64,000 bases of DNA, from positions 336,851 through 400,850 of the forward strand of contig CAVSGV010000006.1 in assembly GCA_963727815.1 (NCBI GenBank), in the 5' to 3' direction. Each line of letters begins with the position of its first letter. Positions within the stretch are counted from its first letter, which is position 1. This stretch comes from an uncultured bacterium (GTDB lineage: Bacteria > Margulisbacteria > WOR-1 > CAVSGV01). The position numbers and the translations under genes are program-made. This document shows positions 25,429 to 64,000 of the stretch, piece by piece. A model generated the notes under the pieces. The model ran no database searches. It was not told the DNA's origin and worked only from the letters and a program-made list of their open reading frames with translations.

Positions 25429-25435
25429 CGAAAAC

Positions 25436-25498
25436 AAATCCCAAATCCCACCCCCCAAATCCCAAATTTTGGGATTTGGAATTTGGTCATTGGGATTT
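25436..25498. repeat. Heptamer (AAATCCC/GGGATTT) tandem-repeat hairpin
   Basis: aaatcccaaatcccaccccccaaatcccaaat followed by tttgggatttggaatttggtcattgggattt, between divergent smc and rpsF. Confidence 0.85.
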
Positions 25499-35919: not shown

Positions 35920-36370
35920 GGTTAGAAATTAGTAATTAGAAATTAGTTTATCTTTGTTTGGGATTTGGCAATTGGGAATTGGGATTTATTTGCGAAAGCA
36001 AATTGCTGGGTTGTTCGTGACTTGTTGAAGGTTTGCAGACTATTTTTCCTGATTAAGTTCGGGAAATCCTTTAAGTACTGCTCAACTTTAACTTGACGGC
36101 AACCCAGTTTTATTTTGGAACAGTTGCAGTATAGCATAATCGCGAAAATATTTCAAGAGGCGCTTTTCTCTAATTTTGCCATCGCGAATAACTCGAAGGG
36201 TCAGGATCGCGAATTCACGAATGCTCACTAATTTACGCGAATATACACTAATCAATATGCCTTGATCGATTCGGATTCGAGATCATTAGAGTAAATTGGA
36301 ATTTATTCGAGAATTAGAGAGCTGATCTTTCGCGTTATTCGTGACAAGAAAAATTCGCGAGGATAAGCGA
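35920..36370. repeat. Intergenic cluster of heptamer repeats and nested approx. 9-bp-period inverted repeats
   Basis: ttagaaattagtaattagaaattag; tttgggatttggcaattgggaattgggattt; cgcgaataactcgaa pairing with ttcgcgttattcgtg; cacgaat/cactaat arms pairing with attagag/attcgag arms. Confidence 0.7.
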
Positions 36371-40668: not shown

Positions 40669-41449
40669 ATGAAAATCGATATTCTAACTTTATTCCCCTC
40701 GATGTTCTCTCCGCTTGATGAAAGCATTATCGGCAAGGCAAAGAGCAGGGGCCTGCTCGATATCCGCGTCACGGATATCAGGAGTTTCGCCGCCGATAAG
40801 CACAGGACAGCGGATGATTCTCCATACGGAGGAGGGCCGGGGATGGTGTTAAAACCCGATCTGATTATTGAAGCCATCAACGAGATTAAATCCCAAATCT
40901 CAAATCCCAAATCCCAAACAAATCTCAAATCAGAACATCAAAATTCCAAACCACTTGTTATTTTGCTTTCGCCTGCCGGAATCACGCTTGATGATAAGAA
41001 AGCGCGGGAGCTGGCGAAAGAGGAACATCTGGTGCTCATCTGCGGGCATTACGAAGGCGTGGACCAGAGAGCCATCGACGAACTCGTTGATGAAGAGATT
41101 TCCATCGGAGATTACGTTCTTACCGGCGGAGAGATACCGGCGATGGTCCTTATTGATGCAGTATCAAGGTTCATTCCTGGAGTTCCTGGGAGACAAGTCA
41201 TCATCAAGCGAGGAATCTTTCTCTTTCAGCCTGCTTGAATATCCGCAATACACAAAACCAGCGAACTGTTTGGGCAGGGAAGTTCCGGAAGTGCTCCTGA
41301 GCGGCGATCACAAAAAGATAGCGAGCTGGAGAAGAGAAGAATCGATAAAGAACACTTTCTTCAGGCGGCCGGACCTTTTATCGAAGGCCGACATCACCAC
41401 GGAAGACAAAAAGCGCCTTGAAAGCATATTCACGGGAGAGGCCGAATGA
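40669..41449 (+). CDS. trmD: tRNA (guanine-N1)-methyltransferase (frameshift near 41185; in-frame heptamer-repeat insertion)
   Basis: DILTLFP, DDSPYGGGPGMV, CGHYEGVDQR, SIGDYVLTGGE, then LLEYPQYTKP, VPEVLLSGDH. Confidence 0.94.
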
Positions 41450-45966: not shown

Positions 45967-46332
45967 ATGGGAAAAGAAAGCGTAACCATAGGCAGGGAAG
46001 GCGAAGAGATCGCCATAAGACACCTAATCGAAAGAGGCTATCGAATAGTTGAGAGGAATTTCCACTCCCAGCAGGGCGAGATCGATATAGTCGCAAAGGA
46101 CGGAGAATTCCTGGTCTTTGTCGAGGTCAAACTTTATTCGATAAGCAGTTTCGGCACACCTCTCGGAGCCGTCCGAAGATCGAAAAAAGAAAGCATCATC
46201 CACGCTGCGCGGACATACCTGATGAAAAAGAATATCCGGGACATCAATTGCAGGTTCGACGTCCTCGCCATCTACAAGAGCTGGAAGGGCCTCGTGACCT
46301 TCGACCTGATAAAGGACGCATTCCAGTGCTGA
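45967..46332 (+). CDS. YraN family (UPF0102) endonuclease-like protein
   Basis: GREGEEIA, GEIDIVA, LVFVEVK, CRFDV. Confidence 0.92.
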   Translation: MGKESVTIGREGEEIAIRHLIERGYRIVERNFHSQQGEIDIVAKDGEFLVFVEVKLYSISSFGTPLGAVRRSKKESIIHAARTYLMKKNIRDINCRFDVLAIYKSWKGLVTFDLIKDAFQC

Positions 46333-47852
46333 TAAAGGTCATCAGCGCCGCGATATCAGGGCTCGACGGTTTCATCGTTGAGGTCGAGATCGATTCCATC
46401 CGCGGCTTGCCGGGGCAATCGATAGTCGGCCTTCCCGACGCGGCGGTGAAGGAAAGCCGGGACAGGGTCAAATTTGCTATCACCAATTCTGGTTTTGAAT
46501 TTCCGCCGGGTTACTTCACCATCAACCTTGCACCTGCCGACGTTCGCAAAGAAGGGCCTATCTACGACCTTCCGATCGCCGTGGGAATGCTGGCGTCTTC
46601 CGGCCAGATAAAGAGCGACAGGCTGAAAGAGACGATAATCCTCGGCGAGCTGTCGCTTGACGGCGGACTTCGCGCGGTGAACGGCGTTCTCTGCATGTGC
46701 ATGGCCGGCCAAACATCAGGGATAAAAAGGATCATCGTGCCGAAGGAGAACGCGGATGAAGCGGCGCTCGTGTCAGATATCGAAGTCATCGCCTGCCGAA
46801 GCCTGCTCGACGCCGTCGGATACCTGAACGGCGAACTTAATATCAAGCCGCATAAGATCGATATCAACGCGCTTTTTTCGTCCCAGCCGCCTTTCGACAT
46901 CGACTTCTCCGACGTGAAAGGGCAGGGGCACGCGAAGAGAGCGCTTGAAGTGGCGGCGGCCGGCGGTCACAACATCCTGATGGTCGGCTCTCCGGGAAGC
47001 GGGAAGACCATGCTGGCAAGGCGTTTGCCGACGATACTTCCGCCGCTTTCGATAAAGGAAGCGCTGGAAGTGACGAAACTCTACAGCGTTACCGGATTAT
47101 TGAGTTCAAAGGTATCACTGATCACATCGCGTCCATTCCGATCTCCTCACCACACAACGTCCGACATCGGAATAATCGGCGGAGGCAGGATCCCCCGTCC
47201 TGGGGAGGTTAGCCTGGCGCACCTCGGAATACTTTTCCTTGACGAATTCCCCGAATTCGAAAGGAAGGTGCTCGAGGTGCTCCGGCAGCCGCTCGAGGAC
47301 GGAATTGTTACCATCGCGCGTGCGATGAGCTGCGTCACATATCCCGCGGCATTCATGCTTGTTGCGGCGATGAATCCGTGTCCGTGCGGGAATTACATGG
47401 ACCCCGCGAAATCATGCACGTGTCCCTCACATAAAGTCCAGCGATACTGGGGAAAACTCTCAGGTCCTTTACTGGATAGGATCGATCTTCACGTGGAAGT
47501 GCCTCGATTGAAGAAAGAGGAACTATCAGGCCATGGAACCGGGGAAACTTCGGAGGCGATACGACAAAGGGTCTCGAAAGCGCGGGATATTCAGCTTGAT
47601 AGATTTAAAGGGTCGAACATTCACAGCAACTCAAGGATGCTGCCAAAGCACGTGAGAGAATTCTGCAAGCTTGATAAAGAAGCCGAGAGCCTCCTTAAAT
47701 CCGCCATTCTCCAATTGAAGATGAGCGGAAGAAGTTATGATCGAATTTTGAAGGTATCACGTACTATTGCTGACCTTGATAATTCTGAAGTCATCAAGGC
47801 GAATCACATCGCGGAAGCTATTCAATATAGGTCGTTGGACAGGGGGAAGTAA
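46326..47852 (+). CDS. comM: YifB/ComM Mg-chelatase-like AAA+ ATPase
   Basis: GTG start; VGLPDAAVKESRDRV, NLAPADVRKEG, GSPGSGKT, FLDEFPEF, AAMNPCPCG, LLDRID, EAIQYR. Confidence 0.94.
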   Translation: MLIKVISAAISGLDGFIVEVEIDSIRGLPGQSIVGLPDAAVKESRDRVKFAITNSGFEFPPGYFTINLAPADVRKEGPIYDLPIAVGMLASSGQIKSDRLKETIILGELSLDGGLRAVNGVLCMCMAGQTSGIKRIIVPKENADEAALVSDIEVIACRSLLDAVGYLNGELNIKPHKIDINALFSSQPPFDIDFSDVKGQGHAKRALEVAAAGGHNILMVGSPGSGKTMLARRLPTILPPLSIKEALEVTKLYSVTGLLSSKVSLITSRPFRSPHHTTSDIGIIGGGRIPRPGEVSLAHLGILFLDEFPEFERKVLEVLRQPLEDGIVTIARAMSCVTYPAAFMLVAAMNPCPCGNYMDPAKSCTCPSHKVQRYWGKLSGPLLDRIDLHVEVPRLKKEELSGHGTGETSEAIRQRVSKARDIQLDRFKGSNIHSNSRMLPKHVREFCKLDKEAESLLKSAILQLKMSGRSYDRILKVSRTIADLDNSEVIKANHIAEAIQYRSLDRGK

Positions 47853-47857
47853 TATCT

Positions 47858-48445
47858 ATGGGAATAACAAATAAGATGATTACCATTCAAAATAAAATAT
47901 TTGAGTTAAGAGGACAGAAGGTAATGCTCGATAAGGATATTGCGGAATTATACGGTATTTCAACAAAAGCGCTGAATCAGGCGGTTAGAAGGAATGTTGA
48001 GAGATTCCCTGCGGATTTTATGTTCCAGCTGGCCTATAACGAGATCATCGATATGACAGCGATGAAACAAAGGAAGGGTTCAAGGTCACAAAATGTGACC
48101 TTGAACAGAGGCAAGAATATCAAATATTTGCCTTATGCTTTTACCCGGAATGGCGTAAATATGCTGGCGACAGTGCTAAAGTCCAGGATCGCGGTGCAAA
48201 GATCGATATTCATAATGCGCGCTTTTTCGGTCCTGGAGGAAGCTGTCGGGTCAAGGGGAAAGCAGATATTAAGCAGTCCGCAGGTCATCAAACAGTTATC
48301 GCTGCACTCGAAGGCGATAATGAGACTTTTCAAGGAAACGGGAATAAACAGCAAGAACATATCCTTGCTGAAAAAGCTTCAGGAAGAGATGGGCAAATTG
48401 ATCCAAAAGATAATAATCTCTTCCATTGTGAACGAAGGGAAATAA
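47858..48445 (+). CDS. ORF6N-domain DNA-binding protein
   Basis: RGQKVMLDKDIAELYG, LNQAVRRNVERFPADFMFQL, RSQNVTL, LPYAFT. Confidence 0.9.
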   Translation: MGITNKMITIQNKIFELRGQKVMLDKDIAELYGISTKALNQAVRRNVERFPADFMFQLAYNEIIDMTAMKQRKGSRSQNVTLNRGKNIKYLPYAFTRNGVNMLATVLKSRIAVQRSIFIMRAFSVLEEAVGSRGKQILSSPQVIKQLSLHSKAIMRLFKETGINSKNISLLKKLQEEMGKLIQKIIISSIVNEGK

Positions 48446-48455
48446 AAAGGTATAA

Positions 48456-48587
48456 ATGTTTAAGGTCATTTGCCGGTTCCCGATCAATTCGATAACGGAA
48501 GTATATCTCAGCGAGCAGGAGCTGAATGTTTGGCTGACCAGGGCGTTCTTAAGAGCGAGGATAATCAGTTACGAGAGGATTTCGTAG
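48456..48587 (+). CDS. Possible 43-aa small protein
   Basis: AAAGG SD, then MFKVICRFPINSITEVYLSEQELNVWLTRAFLRARIISYERIS*; ends just before the heptamer tract. Confidence 0.45.
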   Translation: MFKVICRFPINSITEVYLSEQELNVWLTRAFLRARIISYERIS

Positions 48588-48590
48588 AAA

Positions 48591-48660
48591 AGTTGCTAGT
48601 TGTCAGTTGCCAATTTCCAGTTGCCAGGTGCCAGTTGCTAGGTCCCAGTAAAAATGCAGT
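48591..48660 (+). repeat. Heptamer tandem repeat, 8 x AGTTGCY-like, upstream of the four-helix-bundle gene
   Basis: agttgct agttgtc agttgcc aatttcc agttgcc aggtgcc agttgct aggtccc, then agtaaaaatgca. Confidence 0.9.
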
Positions 48661-48677
48661 AAAGGAGAATTGAATAT

Positions 48678-49046
48678 ATGGTAAAGATCAAGGATTACAG
48701 AGATCTGGTAGTTTGGCAGAGGGCGCACAAATTGGTTCTGGCGATATATAGGGTCACAAGACAATTTCCTGCAGAAGAGAAATATGGGCTTGTTCAGCAG
48801 ATAAGGCGGTCAGCGGCTTCGATTCCAACAAACATAGCTGAAGGCACTGAAAGATATTCCAGGAAAGAATATCTACAATTTCTTTATATTAGCAGAGGCT
48901 CATTATCAGAAACAGATTATCATGTACTGTTAAGCTATGACCTTGAGTACATTTCGAGCGAAACATATAATATTCTGAGCACAATGATAATTGAAATCGG
49001 AAAGATGCTAAATGGCCTGATAAATGCACTTAAGCCCAGTTGCTAG
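48678..49046 (+). CDS. Four-helix-bundle protein (23S rRNA IVP / Avd-fold family)
   Basis: YRDLVVWQRA, FPAEEKYGLVQQIRRSAASIPTNIAEG, FLYISRGSLSE; SD AAGGAG. Confidence 0.93.
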   Translation: MVKIKDYRDLVVWQRAHKLVLAIYRVTRQFPAEEKYGLVQQIRRSAASIPTNIAEGTERYSRKEYLQFLYISRGSLSETDYHVLLSYDLEYISSETYNILSTMIIEIGKMLNGLINALKPSC

Positions 49047-49149
49047 TTTCTAGTTGCCAGCTTCCAGTTGTTAGTGAAAAATGCAATAAGCCCCTTGTAT
49101 AATATCTTTCCTGTTTTCACTAGCAACTAGCACCTAGTACCTGGCAACT
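49038..49149. repeat. Heptamer inverted-repeat hairpin (5 forward + 4 reverse AGTTGCY units)
   Basis: agttgct agtttct agttgcc agcttcc agttgtt agtgaaaa ... ttttcact agcaact agcacct agtacct ggcaact. Confidence 0.9.
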
Positions 49150-49170
49150 TGTTTTTCTCTGCTTTCCCCC

Positions 49171-49198
49171 TTGCTCCCGTCACAGCCCGGCGTATAAT
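49171..49198 (+). promoter_or_regulatory. Module promoter A (TTGCTC-16-TATAAT)
   Basis: ttgctc ccgtcacagcccggcg tataat; homologous to the promoters at 49886 and 50662. Confidence 0.7.
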
Positions 49199-49217
49199 TC
49201 CCCCTAGAGGTGAGAGA

Positions 49218-49721
49218 ATGAAAAAAATATTATTCCTGTTATTTCTGAGCGCGATGCTAATTCTGCCGAGTTCATCAGCGACGGTGAACAGCAAGAACGG
49301 CCTGGAGGTGGCGAACCCGAACAGGCTGGGGATATACATCGAGGACCTGGACCAGCACGCGATCAGCATAGGATTATCAAAGGATGATATAACGGCAAGA
49401 GTTAAGGCTAAATTGAGCCAGAGCAACATCAAGGCGGAGACGAATTCGGCGAAGAAGGCGTACTTGTATGTGAACATCAACACTTTCGGGGCGCCCTTGA
49501 CCAGTTTCAACATTTACGTAAGTTTTGACAGGAACGTCCGGTTCGACGCGGGCGATGACACTTACACTTCTTACGGAGCGCACACATATTTCAAGGGTTT
49601 CACGGGGATAGCGGAATCAAATAAAGCCGCGGGTCTCATCCTGCAGGCGCTGGACGGGTTACTTGACCAGTTCATAAGCGATTACACTGATGCCAACATC
49701 GCGAGGATGAGAAAGTACTGA
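49218..49721 (+). CDS. Hypothetical exported protein
   Basis: SD GAGGTG; signal peptide MKKILFLLFLSAMLILPSSSA. Confidence 0.8.
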   Translation: MKKILFLLFLSAMLILPSSSATVNSKNGLEVANPNRLGIYIEDLDQHAISIGLSKDDITARVKAKLSQSNIKAETNSAKKAYLYVNINTFGAPLTSFNIYVSFDRNVRFDAGDDTYTSYGAHTYFKGFTGIAESNKAAGLILQALDGLLDQFISDYTDANIARMRKY

Positions 49722-49758
49722 TTATTATTTTGATGCTGACGGTCAGGGCGAAGCAGGA

Positions 49759-49913
49759 AGGGATTAGTGGCTAGTGGTTGGGGGTTAGTGAGTGGTCAGG
49801 CATCAAGGGATCAGTATTTTCTATTCACTTAATGCCCGAACACTCACAAACCACTATCCCCTGATCCCTGACCACTACTTATTGCTTGATACCGCAACCT
49901 GCGGGCGTATACT
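49759..49913 (+). repeat. 155-bp module copy 1: heptamer hairpin plus promoter B (TTGATA-16-TATACT)
   Basis: Aligns without gaps to 50535-50689 with about 22 mismatches by manual count. Confidence 0.92.
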
Positions 49914-49935
49914 AATTATGTAAGGCGGTGAAATA

Positions 49936-50043
49936 ATGGGTAAAGGCGATAACAGAGAGAAAAAAGACACAAAAAAAGCTCCAAAGAAAACTCTTAAAGA
50001 AAAGAGAGCTGACAAAAGGGCTAAAAAAGAGAGCAAACAATAG
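49936..50043 (+). CDS. 35-aa highly basic small protein
   Basis: MGKGDNREKKDTKKAPKKTLKEKRADKRAKKESKQ*, directly after promoter B and an SD-like GGCGGTG. Confidence 0.7.
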   Translation: MGKGDNREKKDTKKAPKKTLKEKRADKRAKKESKQ

Positions 50044-50071
50044 AATAGATCGGTTTGTTGAGGAGAAATAA

Positions 50072-50494
50072 ATGCTCGATTGGAAACTGTACGCCGTAGG
50101 CTCCGCATTATTCGCGGGGTTGACGGCGGTGCTTGCGAAGGTGGGGGTCAGGCATATCTCATCCAACATGGCCACGCTGGTGCGGACGTTCGTTATCATC
50201 ATATTCATCGGGGTGGTCGTGGGGATGAGGCGGGAGTGGAAGAGCCCGTTTTCGCTGGACAAGGTAAGTCTGACGTTCCTTGTGCTTTCCGCGATAACCA
50301 CGGGGCTTTCGTGGCTCTGCTATTTCCGCGCTCTGCAAGGAGGCCCCGCGTCTCTGGTGGCTCCCATCGATAAACTCAGTCTGGTCTTCGCGGTGGTTCT
50401 GTCGCTGATGTTCCTTGGCGAGCGGCTGGGCGCCTATCAATGGCTGGGTGTCTGCCTGATAACCTGCGGGACTTTGATCATTATTTTTAAGTAG
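50072..50494 (+). CDS. EamA/DMT family transporter (single domain)
   Basis: SALFAGLTAVLAKVG, TGLSWLCYFRALQ, VAPIDKLS; SD GAGGAG. Confidence 0.92.
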   Translation: MLDWKLYAVGSALFAGLTAVLAKVGVRHISSNMATLVRTFVIIIFIGVVVGMRREWKSPFSLDKVSLTFLVLSAITTGLSWLCYFRALQGGPASLVAPIDKLSLVFAVVLSLMFLGERLGAYQWLGVCLITCGTLIIIFK

Positions 50495-50534
50495 CTTGCC
50501 ATCCATCCCATTGCAATGTGCCTATCGAATAAAG

Positions 50535-50689
50535 AGGGGTTAGTGGCTAGGGGTTAGGGATTAGTGAGTGATCAGGGAATAAGTGATCAGTATCTTCTAA
50601 TCACTGAATGCCTAAATTCTCACTAACCACTATCCCCTGATCCCTGACCACTACTTCTTGCTTGCTACCGCAACACGCGGGCGTATAAT
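50535..50689 (+). repeat. 155-bp module copy 2: heptamer hairpin plus promoter C (TTGCTA-16-TATAAT)
   Basis: Direct repeat of 49759-49913, offset 776 bp. Confidence 0.92.
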
Positions 50690-50707
50690 CTTTCTCGAGG
50701 TGGCGAG

Positions 50708-50944
50708 ATGATGAAAAAAGCATTTAACAATCCATATGTTATTGCTATTATTTCCGGCTTAATTGTTATGGTTTTAACCATCACTATTCAAAGAATCTTT
50801 TTTCCACCTAAAGCAAGGATAACAACCGAAAGCAGAGTAACGATTAAAACTTCGAACAAGGCAATAACAATTGAAGGTAGCCCATCCAAGCCAGCAGATA
50901 TTGAATTACAAATGAAGTATCCGGATTATCTTAAAAGTAAATAA
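50708..50944 (+). CDS. Small membrane-anchored hypothetical protein (AT-rich)
   Basis: SD GAGGTG; one N-terminal TM helix. Confidence 0.65.
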   Translation: MMKKAFNNPYVIAIISGLIVMVLTITIQRIFFPPKARITTESRVTIKTSNKAITIEGSPSKPADIELQMKYPDYLKSK

Positions 50945-50956
50945 GGGGATAAGAGA

Positions 50957-51979
50957 ATGAATATTTTATTTTTATTATATATTCTATTAGCTTATTTATT
51001 ACTAGGCTTTCTTAGGTTTATTGCCGACTATAGAAAGCCTTTTTACAATCAGCCTGGATATATTAAAGGCATAATATATAAGGATTTATTCAATGCAATT
51101 ATAGGCCTGCCTATTTTTATTTATTTTTTAATTATTGATGCCATGAATATATTTGATGATTATGGCGTATATGCTCAATGGAAAAAAAGAAATAATCGAC
51201 GGGAATTAATGGCGACAGTTGACAATAAAACAAGTAAAGTTGCCCAATGGATAGAGATGCAATATCAAAAATATCTCGTAAAAAACCCTTCACTTATGCA
51301 GGCATTATCATTCGAAGAAATTCGAGTGATTACATACTTTATTACTTGGGCTAAAGTTAATAAATCTGGGGATCGAGTTCCCGAATTATTAGGTAAGCCT
51401 ATGCTGGAATGGATTGCGCCATATCAGAATGATGCTACGCTTTTTGAGTTGGGGTGTCATTTGTATTTTATTATTGATCTCTGGCATGTCAAACATGGCT
51501 ATAAGCCATTAAGGAGTTTTGTCGTACGATACCTTATCAGAGATTTTATAGAGATCTTCGAAGATTCATTGGGAATTCGCCATGCTGATGAGATATTCCT
51601 GAATAGATGGGCTTACTATTCAGGACTTATAAATAGAAATAACTTAACTGTTCCTACTGAAGAAATATTCTTTACGCTATCAAATCTAATCGGCAGCACA
51701 AGAAATAATACCCCGCCCAAAAAACATGACATTGGTCGTATGCCACTTAGTGGCGGGGATGCTATTGATCATGTTTTCAGAGAAAGAGACATTCTTGATT
51801 TTCTTATATCGGCAATTCCGATCAGCTTAAAATTCATCAAAAGATTCTATGAGGATTATCCAGACAGTAAGAGGAATAAATTATATGCTGCTGATGGCGT
51901 ATACCCATCAAAAGAATTTCTTATGGATGATTTGTATACTGATATCAGCACCTATAAACGAAAAAATCCAAATGAATAA
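50957..51979 (+). CDS. Hypothetical membrane-anchored protein (AT-rich)
   Basis: 340-aa ORF with two N-terminal hydrophobic segments; visibly much lower GC than core genes. Confidence 0.75.
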   Translation: MNILFLLYILLAYLLLGFLRFIADYRKPFYNQPGYIKGIIYKDLFNAIIGLPIFIYFLIIDAMNIFDDYGVYAQWKKRNNRRELMATVDNKTSKVAQWIEMQYQKYLVKNPSLMQALSFEEIRVITYFITWAKVNKSGDRVPELLGKPMLEWIAPYQNDATLFELGCHLYFIIDLWHVKHGYKPLRSFVVRYLIRDFIEIFEDSLGIRHADEIFLNRWAYYSGLINRNNLTVPTEEIFFTLSNLIGSTRNNTPPKKHDIGRMPLSGGDAIDHVFRERDILDFLISAIPISLKFIKRFYEDYPDSKRNKLYAADGVYPSKEFLMDDLYTDISTYKRKNPNE

Positions 51980-52010
51980 TTGGATAATAATATAGTGAGG
52001 AGGCTAAAAC

Positions 52011-52232
52011 ATGAAAGGTCCAAATGAAATTAAAAGCACAAAGGAGCATATCAAAGATTGCAACAATGCAATTGTGGAATCTCAGGCAGAAATTGGTCGC
52101 CTTGAGGGTAAAAAAATATCAGATGCAAGCCATGCGGCTGATTATGATAAAAAGATTGCCGAACATCGTAGTGTGATAAGTAAAATGCAAATACAGAGAG
52201 ATATATTAATTAAAAGTCTTTCTGATTGCTAA
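52011..52232 (+). CDS. Small coiled-coil hypothetical protein
   Basis: Strong SD GAGGAGG; heptad-like pattern. Confidence 0.65.
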   Translation: MKGPNEIKSTKEHIKDCNNAIVESQAEIGRLEGKKISDASHAADYDKKIAEHRSVISKMQIQRDILIKSLSDC

Positions 52233-52247
52233 ACAGATTAATGTTGT

Positions 52248-54257
52248 CTACTTAGCCGGCAGCTCGATCGGCATTACGAAGAACGGAATGCCTTCCTTAT
52301 AAAGCCTTTCGTGGACGGAGAATAAAGTATAGTTGTGCAGAAGACGCGACATCAGCGTCGTCCTCGGGAAAACAACCTGCCCGCCGAAGAACGTCGCGTT
52401 CGGGTACTTCTCCAGAAGCTCGCATGCCGCCTTTGAGATCTCTTCTACCGTATCGATCCCGAACACCGCCACGCCTTCCGCGTGATACCCGTGCTGCTTA
52501 AGCAGTTCCACGTACCTGTTCAGCTCCTTGTGGACCTTGTCCTTCACGGCTTCCAGCTCCGCCTGGCTCCTGAAAGCGCCCGCGTCTATAAGCCCGAACT
52601 GGATGAAAACGAAGTTCTTGAAGACCGGCCCGAAAGACTTGAATATCGCAAAGAGCGTCTTTAACCCGACCCCCGTGAAATCTTTCACGAGAATGACCGC
52701 CGTCTTGTCATTGGGATCGAACGCGCCCGGATTGTTCCGGACCGGTATCTGATACACCGGATGCGTCGCATCCACCTCTTCAACGATCCTGTCCAGCTTT
52801 TCCATCTTCTCGTCGGTGGACTGGTAATTCATCTTGATGATGAGCATGAATAATATCAGCGTTCCCGTAATGACAAGCGTTATCCAGCCGCCTTCCTGGA
52901 ATTTTATTATCGTCACAGAAACGAGGATGAACGACGTCAGGATGAGACCGATGCCGTTAACGGATATCTTCGGTATCCAGTCGCGTATCACGTGCCTCGC
53001 TTCCCACCAGTGCTTCACCATTCCTATCTGGGAAAGACAGAAAGTTATGAACACGTTGATGCTGTAAAGAACGACAAGATAGCCGACGGAACCGTTCGTG
53101 GAGATCATCAGAACAAGGGAGCCCAGCCCCATTATCAATATCCCGTTTATCGTGACGAGCCTGTCGGAAAGGAGAGCGAACCTTTTCGGCAGCCACCTGT
53201 CAGCCGCCATGTTGGCGAGCACGCGCGGACCGTCTATGAACCCCGTCTGCGCCGCCACAAAAAGGATAGCCGCTTCGGATATCAACGTGAGAAGAACAAA
53301 AAAGTAACCGCTTATTCCCCAGCCTGTGGTCACTCTCTCGAACAGCACTGCGTTCAGCGTCTTGCCCGTCTGCGGCTCTACTCTGTAAAGCACATACGCG
53401 AGCATCAATCCGAGAACTACCGTGGCGAGAGAGACCACCATGTATTGCATCGTTTTTTTCGCGGTCTTCACTTTCGGCTCGCGAAGGATGGGCAGGCCGT
53501 TGCTCACCGCTTCGATACCGGTGTACGTTCCGGCGCCCATGCTGTAAGCCCGCATGATAAGAAAAAGGAAACCGAAAAGACCGAGCTGGGAGACGGTGGA
53601 CTTGATGTCGCTCCCGGTGGAATGCGCGACGGCGGAAAAACCGCCCAGGTGAGTGACCATCGCGTAAACTATTATGATGATATGGGTCAGGACGAAAGCC
53701 AGGAATATCGGCGTGAGTATCGCCACGGATTCCTTTACCCCGCGCAGGTTGAGGAGAATAAGAACAAAAAGCACCGCGACCGCGAACCAAAGTTTATACG
53801 TGATGAGCGAAACCGGCATCAGGCTGAACAGAGCGTCGGCGCCGCTGGCGACGGAGAGCGTGATGGTCAAAATGTAGTCTATGAGAAGAGCGGCTCCCGA
53901 GACCATGCCGACGTTCGGAGAGAGCAGTTTGCTCGCGACAATGTATCCTCCGCCGCCGGTGGGGAACAGCTCCACTATCTGCGAATAGCTTTCCGCGATT
54001 ATGAATATCGTTATCGCGGTGGCGAGACCGACGAGAATGCCGAGGAAATGATGGCCGCCCAGGTTGATGAAAGCCTCCGGAGGTCCGTAACAGGATGATG
54101 ACAATCCGTCGGCGCCCAGTCCCACCCACGCGAAGAAAGCGATGAGCGAAATATTGTGCATTGTGGCCTGGTCCATCGGATTCCTCGCTCCGCCGATGAG
54201 GATCTCTTTCATTTTGTGGCGGATGCCGCGCTTATGTTCTATTTCTTTGTGAGGCAT
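52248..54257 (-). CDS. APC-superfamily permease, KimA/YdaO-like
   Basis: ADGLSSSCYGPPEAF, FPTGGGGY, LIDYILTITLSVASG, TGIEAVSNG; cytoplasmic C-terminal domain. Confidence 0.85.
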   Translation of the reverse strand: MPHKEIEHKRGIRHKMKEILIGGARNPMDQATMHNISLIAFFAWVGLGADGLSSSCYGPPEAFINLGGHHFLGILVGLATAITIFIIAESYSQIVELFPTGGGGYIVASKLLSPNVGMVSGAALLIDYILTITLSVASGADALFSLMPVSLITYKLWFAVAVLFVLILLNLRGVKESVAILTPIFLAFVLTHIIIIVYAMVTHLGGFSAVAHSTGSDIKSTVSQLGLFGFLFLIMRAYSMGAGTYTGIEAVSNGLPILREPKVKTAKKTMQYMVVSLATVVLGLMLAYVLYRVEPQTGKTLNAVLFERVTTGWGISGYFFVLLTLISEAAILFVAAQTGFIDGPRVLANMAADRWLPKRFALLSDRLVTINGILIMGLGSLVLMISTNGSVGYLVVLYSINVFITFCLSQIGMVKHWWEARHVIRDWIPKISVNGIGLILTSFILVSVTIIKFQEGGWITLVITGTLILFMLIIKMNYQSTDEKMEKLDRIVEEVDATHPVYQIPVRNNPGAFDPNDKTAVILVKDFTGVGLKTLFAIFKSFGPVFKNFVFIQFGLIDAGAFRSQAELEAVKDKVHKELNRYVELLKQHGYHAEGVAVFGIDTVEEISKAACELLEKYPNATFFGGQVVFPRTTLMSRLLHNYTLFSVHERLYKEGIPFFVMPIELPAK

Positions 54258-56098
54258 TATATGTCCAGCTCCATCGCGGGGTCGGTCTCCTTTGACGCTT
54301 TTTCTCCCTCGACTTTGTTTTCCCTGAACCCGTGTTTTTTGAGATACAGGAACCATTTAACGGACGAGTCGCACGTTATCACTACGACCAGGACTATCAT
54401 CACGATGGACAGGAACGCGTTAAGGTTGCCGTTGAATGAATGCGACGGCAGGTAATTTCCGAAAATGTTTTCGATCCCTGCGGTGATCGTGGTCACCAGC
54501 ATGAAAAGCATCGGCAGGAAAGTTATGAGCGCGTAAACTTTCTTTTTGTTATTTCTCAGTATCACGAACGTACCTATTATCAACGCAACCGTGGCGAGAA
54601 GCTGATTTGCCACGCCGAACATCGGCCATATGGTCGAGATGTCGCCGTTGTAAACAAGATATCCCCATGAAGCCACGACCAGCGCGCTGGTTATCAATAT
54701 TCCCGGCCACCATTTTGTGTCGCCGAAAGGCTTGTAAACTTTTCCGAATATCTCCTGGGTTATGTATCTTGCGACCCTGGTCCCGGCATCGATCGTCGTC
54801 AGGATGAACAGCGCCTCGAACATTATGGCGAAATGATACCAGTACCCCATCAAACCTTTCATTCCGGGGATGCCCGAAAATATCTGCGCCATTCCCACCG
54901 CCAGCGAGACCGCTCCGCCCGGACGCCCGATTATATTTTCCTGGACCATTTTTCCGAGCGGCACAATATTGACCGTTGCCATATTGAGTTTTGCGAATAC
55001 CGCCGGAGCAGTGTTGATGACGAAATAATCGCCGGGGAAAAGAGCGGTAGCGGCTATCAGCGCCATGATGGCGACGAAACCTTCAACGAGCATCGCGCCG
55101 TAGCCTATCATCCTGATGTCCTTTTCGTTCGAGATCATTTTAGGCGTGGTCCCTGAAGATATCAGAGAGTGAAAACCTGATATCGCGCCGCACGCTATCG
55201 TTATGCAGACGAACGGCCAGACTTTTCCGGGGATGATAGGTCCTCCTCCGTGGATGAAAGGTGTCAGCGCCGGCATCTTCAGGACGGGATGAACGAAGAA
55301 TATCCCCAGGCCGAGCAAAAGTATCGTCCCGATCTTTAGATATGAGCTGATGTAATCGCGCGGGCATAGAAGGAGCCAGACGGGCAGCACCGACGCTAAA
55401 AATCCGTAAGCTATCAACAACAGCGTCAGGTTCTGCCTGGAGAAAGTGAAAAGGAACGCGAAAGGGGAGCCCTGGACGTTGCAGCCGAATATCACTGCGG
55501 CAAGAAGCAGAACCGTTCCTATCACCGACGCCTCAAGTATCGCTCCTTTTCTCCAGACGCTCATATATATCCCGACGAGCATCGCCGCCGGAATGCTCAC
55601 CGCGATGGCGAACGTTCCCCAGGGGCTCTGCGCCAGAGCGTTCACCACCACTATCGACAATCCCGCAAGAGCGGTCACGATTATGAAAAGGACCGCTATC
55701 GCCGTCGCGATCCCCGTTGTCCTGCCGATATAATCTCTGGCGATCTTGTGGAGAGACAATCCGTTATGCCTCACCGACGCGAAAAGTATCACGTAATCAT
55801 GGACCGCGCCGCCAAGCACCGTGCCGATGATTATCCATATCGCGCCGGGAAGATATCCGAACTGCGCCGCGAGCACCGGGCCTATCAGCGGTCCTGCGCC
55901 TGCAATGGCCGCGAAATGATGGCCGAAAAGCACCCATTTGTTCGTCGGCTCGTAGTCATGGCCGTCCTTGAAGGCGAACGCGGGGGTCTTTTTTTTCGGG
56001 TCGAGCGCCAGGACCTTCGCCGAAAGGAACGCGGAATAATATCTGTACGCGATGACAAAGACGCACAAAGCGACGATCAAAAGTGTAAGAGCGTTCAA
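54257..56098 (-). CDS. cstA: Carbon starvation protein A family transporter
   Basis: [62 protein letters not shown]. Confidence 0.95.
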
Positions 56099-61217: not shown

Positions 61218-61302
61218 CAAAATCCCAAATCCCAACAAAGTGTCCTTCGGACATATTTAATATAAATTCATTGTTTGGATTTGGGATTTGAGATTTGGGA
61301 TT
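61205..61302. repeat. Heptamer (AAATCCC/GGGATTT) inverted-repeat hairpin between convergent genes
   Basis: aaaatcccaataacaaaatcccaaatcccaac ... ttggatttgggatttgagatttgggatt; overlaps both stop codons. Confidence 0.85.
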
Positions 61303-62021
61303 TAAAGTGAAACTATCTTAAGCGTGCCCCACGCGCCCATCTTGTCGTTCTTTATGATGAGCACGCCGTGAAGTCCTTTTATTTTCTTCGCCATGTTAAG
61401 CCCGTCCTCGATGGTCTCTTCATCCTTGACGACGTTGCCTATGGCGGTGGCGGCCGCATCGGCCAGCGCGCATGACTTTGCCGTGACCAGTATCGCATCG
61501 GCTGCGCCGAAAGATGAATGACCCGCCTGCGCGGCGACCGTGCAAACTCCCAGGGGAGTATTATACGGCGATATCTCGATGGCGATCTTTTCGGAAAATG
61601 GCGACTTGCCCGCGAACACGCCTATCCTCCTGGGCCTGTCTATCTTCACGAAAATGTCGCCGCCGTTCTCCACGATGACTTCTTTTGAATATTTCGCCAG
61701 GTTTTTCCCGACGGCCTCCGTCAGCGCTCCGTCTATGGAAGCCATGGGGCCCACGTTCGCGCGCTTTGCCGCCCAGGCCATTGTCTTGATGATCTTCGGA
61801 GCGAGAAGCGAGACAGCATAAGGCTTGAAGGTCTTTTCGAACTTGGGGTTCTTCGCGATGAATTCTTCCAGCTCTTTTTTTACTTTTTTCAAGATCTCAT
61901 GCGCGGCGGTGGTCAGGGCTTTTTCGGCGAACACGAGCATGTCCGTTTCTTTATCTATGACGGCGCTCCTGACGAGTCCCTTGGCGTTAATGAGTTTCCT
62001 GTATTTGAATTCCTGTTTCAT
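61302..62021 (-). CDS. UPF0280 / ApbE-like protein
   Basis: VGPMASIDGA, IVENGGDI, GHSSFGAADA, ALADAAATAIGN. Confidence 0.88.
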   Translation of the reverse strand: MKQEFKYRKLINAKGLVRSAVIDKETDMLVFAEKALTTAAHEILKKVKKELEEFIAKNPKFEKTFKPYAVSLLAPKIIKTMAWAAKRANVGPMASIDGALTEAVGKNLAKYSKEVIVENGGDIFVKIDRPRRIGVFAGKSPFSEKIAIEISPYNTPLGVCTVAAQAGHSSFGAADAILVTAKSCALADAAATAIGNVVKDEETIEDGLNMAKKIKGLHGVLIIKNDKMGAWGTLKIVSL

Positions 62022-63018: not shown

Positions 63019-64000
63019 CTATTTTGTTTTCAAAAAAGCATTCTTTGCATGCTCTGATATGTCGTTATACCATTCAACTTCATCCTTTGATTGAATAGCA
63101 GAATCAGATAGATTCTTAAAAAATAACCGAATTGATTCTGAGGTGGGCTTACTTTTTAAACTATTTGCATTTGACAATAAGTTTCTAAAATCGTTCAAAG
63201 ATAATGGAATGATTTTAGCTTTACCCCCATAATAGCGAACATTAGTTCTATATAAGCTGTAAAAGTGTGCCAATGTAGCCTCGCTAACTTTTGGAGCGAT
63301 AAAAATACAATAAACGTCTTTCTTTGTTGTTTGTTTGTGATTTCCTAGGTGGCGAGCGACAGGTTCACCCTCCATTTCATATTGTTTGTGTCCAGAAGAC
63401 AAAGTTACTTCTACAGTAATTTCAAAGTTTTTATATTGACAGATTATGTCCGGGGTATTCCCTGGGGCTGTATATAAAGGGATTCCGTTATCATCAACTC
63501 TAAAATTTCCAATAATATTGCCATCATCTAACATAGAAAATGCCCGCCAAACATTCCATTCCAGGAAAAGCGGGGGATCAACAATTTCTTTCTTCTCGAT
63601 TTCCTCAAAAGTGTTGACAATATCATCATATTCTAAGTATGTTTTCAGCTTGTCTTGTTCTGTTTTTATGAAGCTATCTAGTTTCTTTATGACCATATCA
63701 TTGTATAAATCTTTTAATGCCTCTATATTTTTCGCTTGAAGAAGCTTTCTTTTTAATGAAGGGGTCTTTAGGGTAAGCTTTGCTATAAGGGCCTCTTTAT
63801 TGTCTGTGAGTAAAAGTGGAATGCTTGGATTGAACAAATGTTTTTTAAAAGTAGCCTCGTCTTTGTAGGAGCTTGCTTCTCTTGGTGTGTTCTTTAAAAT
63901 GTATTCAACATCTTTATTTTTATCTGGCATCACATAGATTTTAAAGGTTCTTGGATTTATTGAAAAAAGACCCGTTGCCCGTAGATATCTAATGGCAGCA
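63019..64000 (-). CDS. AlwI-family type IIS restriction/nicking endonuclease; C-terminal part, 5' end outside the window
   Basis: RYLRATGL, LEWNVWRAF, TAPGNTPDI...VEVTL...EGEPVARH; AT-rich. Confidence 0.85.
   Translation of the reverse strand, partial: AAIRYLRATGLFSINPRTFKIYVMPDKNKDVEYILKNTPREASSYKDEATFKKHLFNPSIPLLLTDNKEALIAKLTLKTPSLKRKLLQAKNIEALKDLYNDMVIKKLDSFIKTEQDKLKTYLEYDDIVNTFEEIEKKEIVDPPLFLEWNVWRAFSMLDDGNIIGNFRVDDNGIPLYTAPGNTPDIICQYKNFEITVEVTLSSGHKQYEMEGEPVARHLGNHKQTTKKDVYCIFIAPKVSEATLAHFYSLYRTNVRYYGGKAKIIPLSLNDFRNLLSNANSLKSKPTSESIRLFFKNLSDSAIQSKDEVEWYNDISEHAKNAFLKTK

Follow-up and report, generated by a model that had tools for sequence, protein, structure and literature searches.

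A duplicated hairpin-promoter unit at a variable gene spot behind comM in an uncultured, WOR-1-related bacterium

The 64,000-nt stretch of DNA analyzed here (the window; forward positions 336,851 to 400,850 of contig CAVSGV010000006.1, assembly GCA_963727815.1) stems from an uncultured bacterium of the WOR-1 lineage of Margulisbacteria. Behind the conserved gene comM, it contains three units, termed A, B, and C, in each of which a hairpin of tandem heptamers is followed by a putative promoter and by genes of unrelated kinds. Units B and C are copies of each other, unit B is orthologous to the promoter of the small gene pep in related genomes, the genes at this site differ among five genomes, and heptamer hairpins are spread over the whole genome. 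The locus is best explained as a small, hypervariable islet of accessory genes at a synteny break on the 3' side of a housekeeping run, in which a hairpin-promoter unit appears to have been duplicated locally by ordinary recombination and to drive acquired genes, and we assign a probability of roughly 0.55 to this sequence-based explanation. Promoter and terminator activity of the units is predicted, and the copies presumably stem from a tandem duplication or an unequal crossover and the later substitution of foreign DNA, and not from the action of a dedicated recombinase.

Units B and C form an ungapped direct repeat of 153 nt (49759-49911 and 50535-50687) with 86% identity at a distance of 776 nt, i.e., a segmental duplication that is unmistakable within the genome (BLAST E value of 5.4e-47). 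The repeat starts at the left arm of the hairpin and ends at the -10 box (49911 and 50687). Both copies have hexamers and spacing of the sigma-70 type (10/12 positions each with 16-nt spacers according to a sigma-70 scanner), and copy C is located 18 nt upstream of an open reading frame (ORF) that is preceded by a Shine-Dalgarno site. Over 36 nt of the upstream region, B is 86% identical to C versus 50-70% to the copies of relatives, which argues for a duplication within this lineage or for gene conversion. The 28-nt pattern TTGNNNCCGN9GGCGTATAMT matches the plus strand at 49171, 49886, and 50662, with zero matches expected from 100 shuffles of the window and no further match in the 1.68-Mb assembly (six contigs, 70.5% complete); since these very sites served to define the pattern, the number of matches is not an independent test. 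The repeat search also returned a 29-nt family of three copies, which lie 715 and 776 nt apart.

Much of what an earlier note on this DNA had described is borne out by these data. The shared promoter pattern was recovered by searching the window and the assembly, the ungapped B/C repeat of about 86% identity could be delimited to 153 nt, and each promoter is indeed preceded by a hairpin, all three of which fold stably in comparison with shuffled sequences. Family scans confirmed that the cargo differs from unit to unit, and all genes between 45967 and 52232 face the same way (plus strand), without an adjacent integrase or transposase: the ORFs scanned across 39.8-64 kb gave no match to recombinase or transposase families. 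Three homologous modules had been proposed, of which B and C are true paralogues; the homology of A could not be established (14.5 bits; E value of 0.049; see below).

The comparison with 60 related genomes, including five of the same family and G006, which shares the order but not the family, places unit B in an evolutionary context. Promoter and leader are present downstream of comM or the adjoining ORF6N-domain gene in four of the five family genomes. An orthologue of promoter B together with a Shine-Dalgarno site precedes pep in G002, G004, G005, and G006, and pep itself was found with 73-85% identity in these four of the 60 relatives, all of which fall within the order. In module B, the peptide gene thus retains its ancestral promoter. 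The cargo differs among the family genomes. In G002, comM is followed by the ORF6N gene, the promoter, and pep. The order in G004 is a four-helix-bundle gene with other heptamers (32% identity), a small ORF, the ORF6N gene, a heptamer array resembling the right arm, the promoter, and pep. G001 has the small ORF, the ORF6N gene, a small gene on the reverse strand, the promoter, genes for a rubrerythrin-like and an 80-amino-acid (aa) exported protein, and a convergent cstA. In G005, the small ORF, an ORF6N remnant, a full heptamer hairpin, the promoter, and the gene of a 212-aa exported protein extend to the end of the contig, and a second contig opens right at a further copy of the promoter, with pep behind it. 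Both promoter copies of G005 (82% identical over 51 nt) precede different cargo and share homology through the leader up to the start codon. The break in the G005 assembly, between the end of contig C88 (L032 6178-6250) and the start of contig C9 (L120 1-52), coincides exactly with this second copy; repeated promoter units may thus be underassembled in draft genomes of the group.

With cargo that differs between genera and at least two promoter copies in two of them, the spot behind comM is a site of gene accretion at which one promoter type has been reused for unrelated genes, as the earlier note had supposed. That note had named a purely local module with invariant cargo as the finding that would speak against its proposal; the module is a local duplication only, whereas its cargo varies. 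The hairpin in front of promoter B is at least partly ancestral. A fold of -50.8 kcal/mol (z score of -4.7) precedes the promoter in G005, and the right arm is recognizable in G004, where a search for the left arm gave no hairpin (-5.4 kcal/mol; z score of +1.2); G001 and G002 have the promoter without any hairpin.

The original unit would have consisted of a long heptamer hairpin, a promoter of the sigma-70 type whose -10 region reads G/A-GCGTATAAT, a leader of about 20 nt that contains a AAGGCGGTGA Shine-Dalgarno site, and pep. Hairpin and promoter up to the -10 box were duplicated 776 nt downstream, and copy C now stands before an AT-rich three-gene cluster that was probably acquired horizontally; its GC content is 0.29-0.38 versus 0.54-0.59 in comM and the genes of the EamA protein and the permease. 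A third, putative promoter of this class follows the hairpin of an inserted four-helix-bundle element and precedes expA, for which the search of the 60 relatives gave no homologue. With a promoter copy in front of the cluster and a same-class promoter in front of expA, each acquired set would have its own promoter. The hairpin would separate the acquired set from the upstream unit, most likely in the plus-strand RNA, where it could form the 3' end of the transcript as a terminator or stabilizing structure.

A different role of recombination was also considered. The hairpin-promoter could represent portable homology, such that promoter-plus-cargo DNA of relatives is integrated by RecA at the resident promoter (Campbell-type or homology-facilitated integration) and units are excised by recombination between the copies, which would be integron-like in function without requiring an integrase. 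The same promoter at the same site with different cargo in five genomes would fit such an exchange, as would the cargo flanked by promoter copies in two genera (B/C here, the 82% pair in G005), the extension of the G005 homology to the start codon, and the 86% identity of B and C, which is compatible with import from a diverged relative. The order of pep-EamA upstream and the foreign cluster downstream is, however, not the outcome of a single Campbell integration. Word searches of 5.8 billion proteins with expA and with the 340-aa protein of the cluster each retrieved the query only, so that nothing points to a common pool of cassettes, and the degenerate 29-mer of the module had no match in two large collections (genome_contigs and metagenome_contigs). 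Among the 60 relatives, a search with the module DNA matched six genomes through brief stretches of heptamer arm (E values of 3e-5 to 9e-3) and none in the promoter part. Of 14 joints listed from reads, each falls within comM or the permease gene and none at the 776-nt or 715-nt repeats, where the depth is too low to judge. We regard such an exchange as unlikely. Its extension to a family-wide, integrase-free capture locus behind comM, with the unit as expression signal and portable homology and with foreign or newly arisen genes repeatedly taken up, each along with a promoter copy, and swapped by the bacterium's own recombination, seems more doubtful still. The weaker form of the earlier idea, in which genes are repeatedly captured and exchanged by way of homology between the promoter repeats, keeps a similarly small share of plausibility, because the cargo varies and G005 also has two copies.

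Public metagenomes added some information on the locus in nature. Among the best 80 of 597 comM-anchored metagenome loci, the closest were 69-72% identical and hence more distant than the genomes of the family, a single locus (L033) had an ORF6N-like piece beside comM, and the only GGCGTATAAT occurrence (L094) was located far upstream of comM and not downstream. Four DNA metagenome runs with freshwater sediment and peat labels contain 5-9% of the sampled words, and no RNA run was listed among the matches. Pieces with zero differences cover 48547-48697, 49366-49836, 49824-50050, and 51892-52081, thereby linking hairpin B with expA on one side and with pep on the other. In a variant strain, represented by two pieces over 49136-49417 (11 differences in 282 nt), promoter A is still joined to expA.

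The hairpins themselves are stable. Folding energies of A, B, and C amount to -38.6, -53.0, and -56.0 kcal/mol (z scores of -5.1, -3.9, and -6.1), and none of 200 shuffled sequences folded as well. Their arms have a period of seven, with a self-match of 0.51-0.69 at a shift of 7 (0.63-0.69 in hairpin A) versus 0.05-0.40 at shifts of 1-6 and 8-13; among the three modules, Tandem Repeats Finder (TRF) reports arrays for A only. Despite 14% divergence, 34 of 34 predicted pairs are intact in both hairpins B and C. Five pairs have changed, four by A-U/G-U switches that retain pairing on the plus strand only and one by a double change. These strand-specific wobble switches fit a role of the hairpins as RNA and hint that the structure could act in the plus-strand transcript of the upstream genes. 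An Rfam scan of 47800-52400 gave no match at an E value of ≤1.

Heptamer arrays are by no means restricted to the islet. TRF detected 112 period-7 arrays with at least three copies in the genome, which correspond to 126 arrays after merging, and seven is the commonest tandem-repeat period. Of at least 21 short-loop hairpins, 14 lie between ORFs of the same direction, three between divergent and one between convergent ORFs, and three inside ORFs. The heptamers vary in sequence (e.g., AAATCCC, GAGATGC, and AGTTGCC), many arrays are paired as hairpins, and further period-7 arrays of the window are located at 25435-25498, 35922-35984, 40888-40931, and 61220-61303. Outside the window, at G000:C6:578640-578740 on the minus strand, the B/C type of hairpin recurs a third time in diverged form (78% over 51 nt), upstream of another ORF6N-like ORF and without a GGCGTATAAT promoter. 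The short tandemly repeated repetitive (STRR) sequences of cyanobacteria are dispersed intergenic heptamers, and intergenic hairpins of the repetitive extragenic palindrome (REP) or bacterial interspersed mosaic element (BIME) type are thought to end or stabilize transcripts. The dispersed intergenic heptamers and hairpins described here resemble both, but they occur in a WOR-1-related lineage as inverted pairs that form hairpins of 40-60 bp, many of which enclose a gene.

The position of unit A is less clear. In a leave-one-out profile built from B, C, and the promoters of relatives, A was third in the genome with the bit score and E value given above, practically tied with the unrelated sites C5:38308 (14.3 bits) and C3:338115 (14.1 bits), and a profile from the relatives' promoters alone ranked it twelfth (8.5 bits). 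The sigma-70 scanner did not list A, whose -35 hexamer matches at three of six positions although TATAAT is present. Its hairpin is composed of AGTTGCC units, unlike hairpins B and C with their GGTTAGT-type heptamers, and belongs to the element of a four-helix-bundle gene of family PF05635. The compact layout of a GCGTATAAT-like -10 box, a leader of about 20 nt, and a AAGGCGGTGA-like Shine-Dalgarno site also precedes unrelated genes, e.g., at C3:338064 and C5:38308, and similar pieces from the -10 box to the Shine-Dalgarno site occur elsewhere in G001 and G002. The likeness of A and C through GAGGTG to the ATG, on which the earlier note had relied, thus reduces to a Shine-Dalgarno site with its start context. 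Judged by sequence, A belongs to the same promoter class and may be a diverged copy.

It is conceivable that the three units have no common role at all, with B/C as the decaying remnant of a tandem duplication, A as an ordinary promoter, and some of the unique ORFs perhaps not expressed. The leave-one-out search, in which A could not be told statistically from unrelated promoter/Shine-Dalgarno sites, and the occurrence of similar layouts elsewhere in this genome and in G001 and G002 would agree with such a neutral leftover, and with about 126 heptamer arrays in the genome, two adjacent spacers that bear hairpins are unremarkable. Mere decay accords poorly, however, with the preservation in B and C of every one of the 34 hairpin pairs, of both hexamers, and of their 16-nt distance, with the location of copy C 18 nt before an ORF with a Shine-Dalgarno site, with the 114 homologues and the confident structural model of the 340-aa protein (see below), and with the promoter A-expA junction kept in a second strain. 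We consider this explanation rather improbable.

An integron-like platform built on heptamer hairpins, which the earlier note had proposed, is not supported. The best match to the integron integrase profile TIGR02249 in the whole assembly scored 90.9 bits versus a cutoff of 265, the nearest PF00589 match is located about 34 kb upstream, and the analogy fails with respect to the integrase, promoterless cassettes, and hairpin specificity. Each of the three units has its own -35/-10-like site, the repeated unit passes the hairpin and reaches the -10 box, and only two of the hairpins are alike. The locus does share with integrons and with clusters of attC sites lacking integrases (CALINs) the co-oriented small unrelated genes, the imperfect hairpin repeats of about 120 nt, and a cargo of mostly undefined function. 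It differs by the absence of an IntI above the cutoff, by individual promoters instead of one cassette promoter (Pc), by a repeat that enters the promoter, and by hairpins that are tandem heptamers spread over the genome. A true platform, on which heptamer hairpins act like folded attC sites under a dedicated trans-acting recombinase whose gene lies elsewhere or in the 30% of the genome that is missing from the assembly, would be in line with the arrangement of small genes between imperfect hairpins, with the incompleteness of the assembly, from which the enzyme could be missing, and with genes between direct copies of the left arm here (four-helix-bundle gene) and in G005 (small ORF and ORF6N remnant). 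It is nevertheless highly improbable: the hairpins consist of many unrelated heptamers and are scattered singly in the genome, the promoter occurs without any hairpin in G001 and G002, and the wobble changes fit a role as RNA. In the upstream homology box (UHB) families of the Borrelia cp32 plasmids, unrelated coding sequences follow a conserved promoter and 5' region, an arrangement that presumably arose by recombination; these plasmid-borne lipoprotein genes exist in many copies. The locus described here likewise joins a conserved promoter region to unrelated genes, but in two or three chromosomal copies at a single site and with a hairpin before each.

Several observations weigh against a local duplication that simply furnished acquired genes with promoters. 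The identity of A and C (72% over 36 nt and 65% in the spacer) exceeds that of A with control promoters (39-56% and 18-47%), so A may be a third true copy, in which case the array would look more organized than assumed. The order of pep-EamA followed by the AT-rich cluster fits no single simple route of duplication, and the presence of duplicated promoters at one locus in two genera might mean that the process recurs and is directed. The genomes compared represent other genera, so that recent gains or losses of units are outside their reach. As to termination, the hairpins are without a clear U-tract and none was listed by the terminator scanner; their preference for tandem ORFs does not differ significantly from the background (432 tandem, 178 divergent, and 117 convergent) and, given crude ORF calls, is a trend only.

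The element in front of expA deserves separate attention. The four-helix-bundle protein of the window matches PF05635 with 144.9 bits (cutoff, 33.8) and TIGR02436 with 138 bits (cutoff, 24) and stays below the cutoff of the Avd equivalog profile (51.2 versus 80 bits). The element reads array L, PF05635 gene, array L', loop, and array R, with array L forming a direct repeat with 49037-49074 and an inverted repeat with 49114-49149 (81% complementary). Nine PF05635 loci exist in the assembly, and alignments of their flanks as inverted repeats are significant at eight (z scores of 4.7-21.8; 2.9 at the ninth). Each locus uses its own heptamer sequence, and at four of nine, a direct copy of the left arm lies 3' of the gene (z scores of 11.9-41.6). 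Besides 48591-49149, heptamer-flanked PF05635 genes are located at C3:72337, 114271, 117800, 138771, 205329, 418566, and 483335. Three PF05635 loci, found as four search matches of which two are halves of one locus, occur within 12 kb of split tyrosine recombinase matches (C3:108565-110080) outside the window, and the region G000:C3:108565-126091 may be mobile or resemble a diversity-generating retroelement (DGR).

According to PMC10053308, PF05635 proteins resemble the DGR protein Avd, and some are encoded within intervening sequences (IVSs) of 23S rRNA genes. As in those IVSs, the PF05635 gene of module A lies inside a long stem-loop; the stem-loops presented here are located outside rRNA genes, and their tandem-heptamer arms differ from copy to copy. 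The PF05635 heptamer units look like IVS-like or mobile gene-in-hairpin units, and heptamer hairpins without a gene may be their empty derivatives. Among the titles and abstract openings returned by literature searches, none concerned heptamer repeats flanking PF05635 genes.

With respect to the cargo, the products are largely without known families. ExpA has no match in Pfam or NCBIfam; a protein language model retrieved clusters of unnamed exported proteins of about 160-170 aa (score of 0.96), which is a lead only, and a relationship to the 212-aa exported protein of G005 was not detectable (E value of 0.17). The peptide Pep starts with MGKGD, its gene follows a strong-looking promoter, and many differences among relatives, judged by eye, are in third codon positions. 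A link to the ribosomal protein bTHX, suggested by the MGKGD start, was dropped because Pfam returned no family even at an E value of ≤10. The EamA protein was found in none of the five family genomes with the query used and has counterparts of 26-42% identity in three of the 60 relatives. None of the three AT-rich genes has a Pfam match. For residues 89-303 (approximately) of the 340-aa protein, a full HMMER scan recovered 114 relatives (best E value of 1.6e-23), mostly free-standing proteins of about 220 aa that form an unnamed family; of 11 such homologues scanned with Pfam, eight had no family, two were TPR fusions, and one was a MORN fusion. D159, F163, E164, W176, and R217 are invariant in the alignment. 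The AlphaFold model is all-helical with a mean predicted local distance difference test (pLDDT) score of 79.8, without a sequence match in the PDB or a Foldseek match at an E value of ≤0.001, and a resemblance to a Cbp3 homologue was discarded (VIA-align best Z score of 7.6, below chance level for helical models). Given 114 homologues and a confident fold, the 340-aa protein represents a real gene.

The islet is bordered by conserved genes (Table 1). Upstream of yraN, and on the same strand, family matches indicate an RNA methyltransferase, ribosomal protein L19, signal peptidase, and RNase HII. The YraN-family protein is 73-76% identical in G001, G002, G004, and G005, and ComM is 80-84% identical in four of five family genomes, with a candidate division WOR-1 genome as the nearest named record (69%). 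The ORF6N gene adjoins comM in G001, G002, and G004 (38-81% identity); its match to the PADLOC profile PDC-S05 is strong, and a role in defense is a candidate function only. The order of the ORF6N gene and the 43-aa ORF, for which the family scan gave no match, is swapped between genera, with the small ORF first in G001 and G004 and, by eye, before the ORF6N-like remnant of G005, for which tblastn with ORF6N found no match in the locus. The corresponding coordinates are 47858-48587 in the window, L029 8367-9138, L030 10790-11440, and L032 5859-6030, and the stretch behind comM is rearranged in each genome compared. In G002 (L031 6700-6890), inspection by eye revealed about 180 nt of noncoding DNA after pep, with a terminator-like hairpin and T-run at its end, upstream of a gene for an RNA-binding, RRM-like protein; the 180-nt stretch could be a small RNA. 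A right border by cstA is also present in G001. At the end of the window, a gene for an AlwI-type restriction endonuclease is located on the minus strand (63019-63933; PF09491; E value of 8.8e-38).

Table 1. Features of the islet behind comM and its borders (window positions)
Feature	Position	Strand	Basis and remarks
UPF0102/YraN-family gene	45967-46332	+	PF02021, E 8.8e-26; conserved housekeeping run rplS-lepB-rnhB-yraN-comM
comM (YifB/Mg-chelatase-like AAA+ protein), left anchor of islet	46248-47852	+	PF01078, PF13541, PF13335
ORF6N-domain gene	47858-48445	+	PF10543, E 7.5e-30; PADLOC candidate PDC-S05 (PDLC04856, E 5.8e-44)
43-aa small ORF, conserved	48456-48587	+	Homologous ORF in G001, G004, G005
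Heptamer array L (AGTTGCC units), left flank of four-helix-bundle gene	48591-48654	.	TRF period 7, 8.4 copies
Four-helix-bundle gene (23S rRNA IVS protein/Avd-like)	48678-49046	+	PF05635, E 1.2e-42; TIGR02436, E 1.3e-40
Hairpin A (array L' 49036-49080, loop, array R 49114-49149)	49036-49149	+	Fold; TRF period 7
Promoter-like site A (weak -35 TTGCTC, 16-nt spacer, TATAAT)	49171-49198	+	Pattern match
expA, accessory gene (167 aa, N-terminal signal-peptide-like segment)	49218-49721	+	
Hairpin B (GGTTAGT-type heptamers)	49759-49880	+	Fold; part of 153-nt B/C repeat
Putative promoter B (TTGATA, 16-nt spacer, TATACT)	49886-49913	+	Scanner 10/12
pep, conserved (35-aa lysine-rich peptide)	49936-50043	+	
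EamA gene, accessory (single-domain drug/metabolite transporter [DMT] membrane protein, 140 aa)	50072-50494	+	PF00892, E 1.6e-24
Hairpin C, paralogue of hairpin B	50535-50656	+	B/C repeat 86%; fold
Putative promoter C (TTGCTA, 16-nt spacer, TATAAT), copy of promoter B	50662-50689	+	Scanner 10/12
AT-rich three-gene cluster	50708-52232	+	78-aa membrane protein, 50708-50944; 340-aa protein, 50957-51979; 73-aa helical protein, 52011-52232
Amino-acid permease gene	52248-54356	-, convergent	PF13520; right border of islet
cstA	54257-56098	-, convergent	PF02554, E 1e-214; right border with permease

Overall, the locus suggests how an uncultured bacterium with a small genome can express acquired or orphan genes, i.e., by means of a resident compact promoter and an insulating hairpin, and how one promoter may be reused at a single fixed, variable spot behind a housekeeping operon. 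An attractive analogy to integrons has been corrected here as unsupported. The PF05635 genes and the gene-free hairpins of the same build look like an undescribed class of repeats or mobile elements, and the enclosure of such genes by heptamers may bear on the origin of the intervening sequences of rRNA genes.

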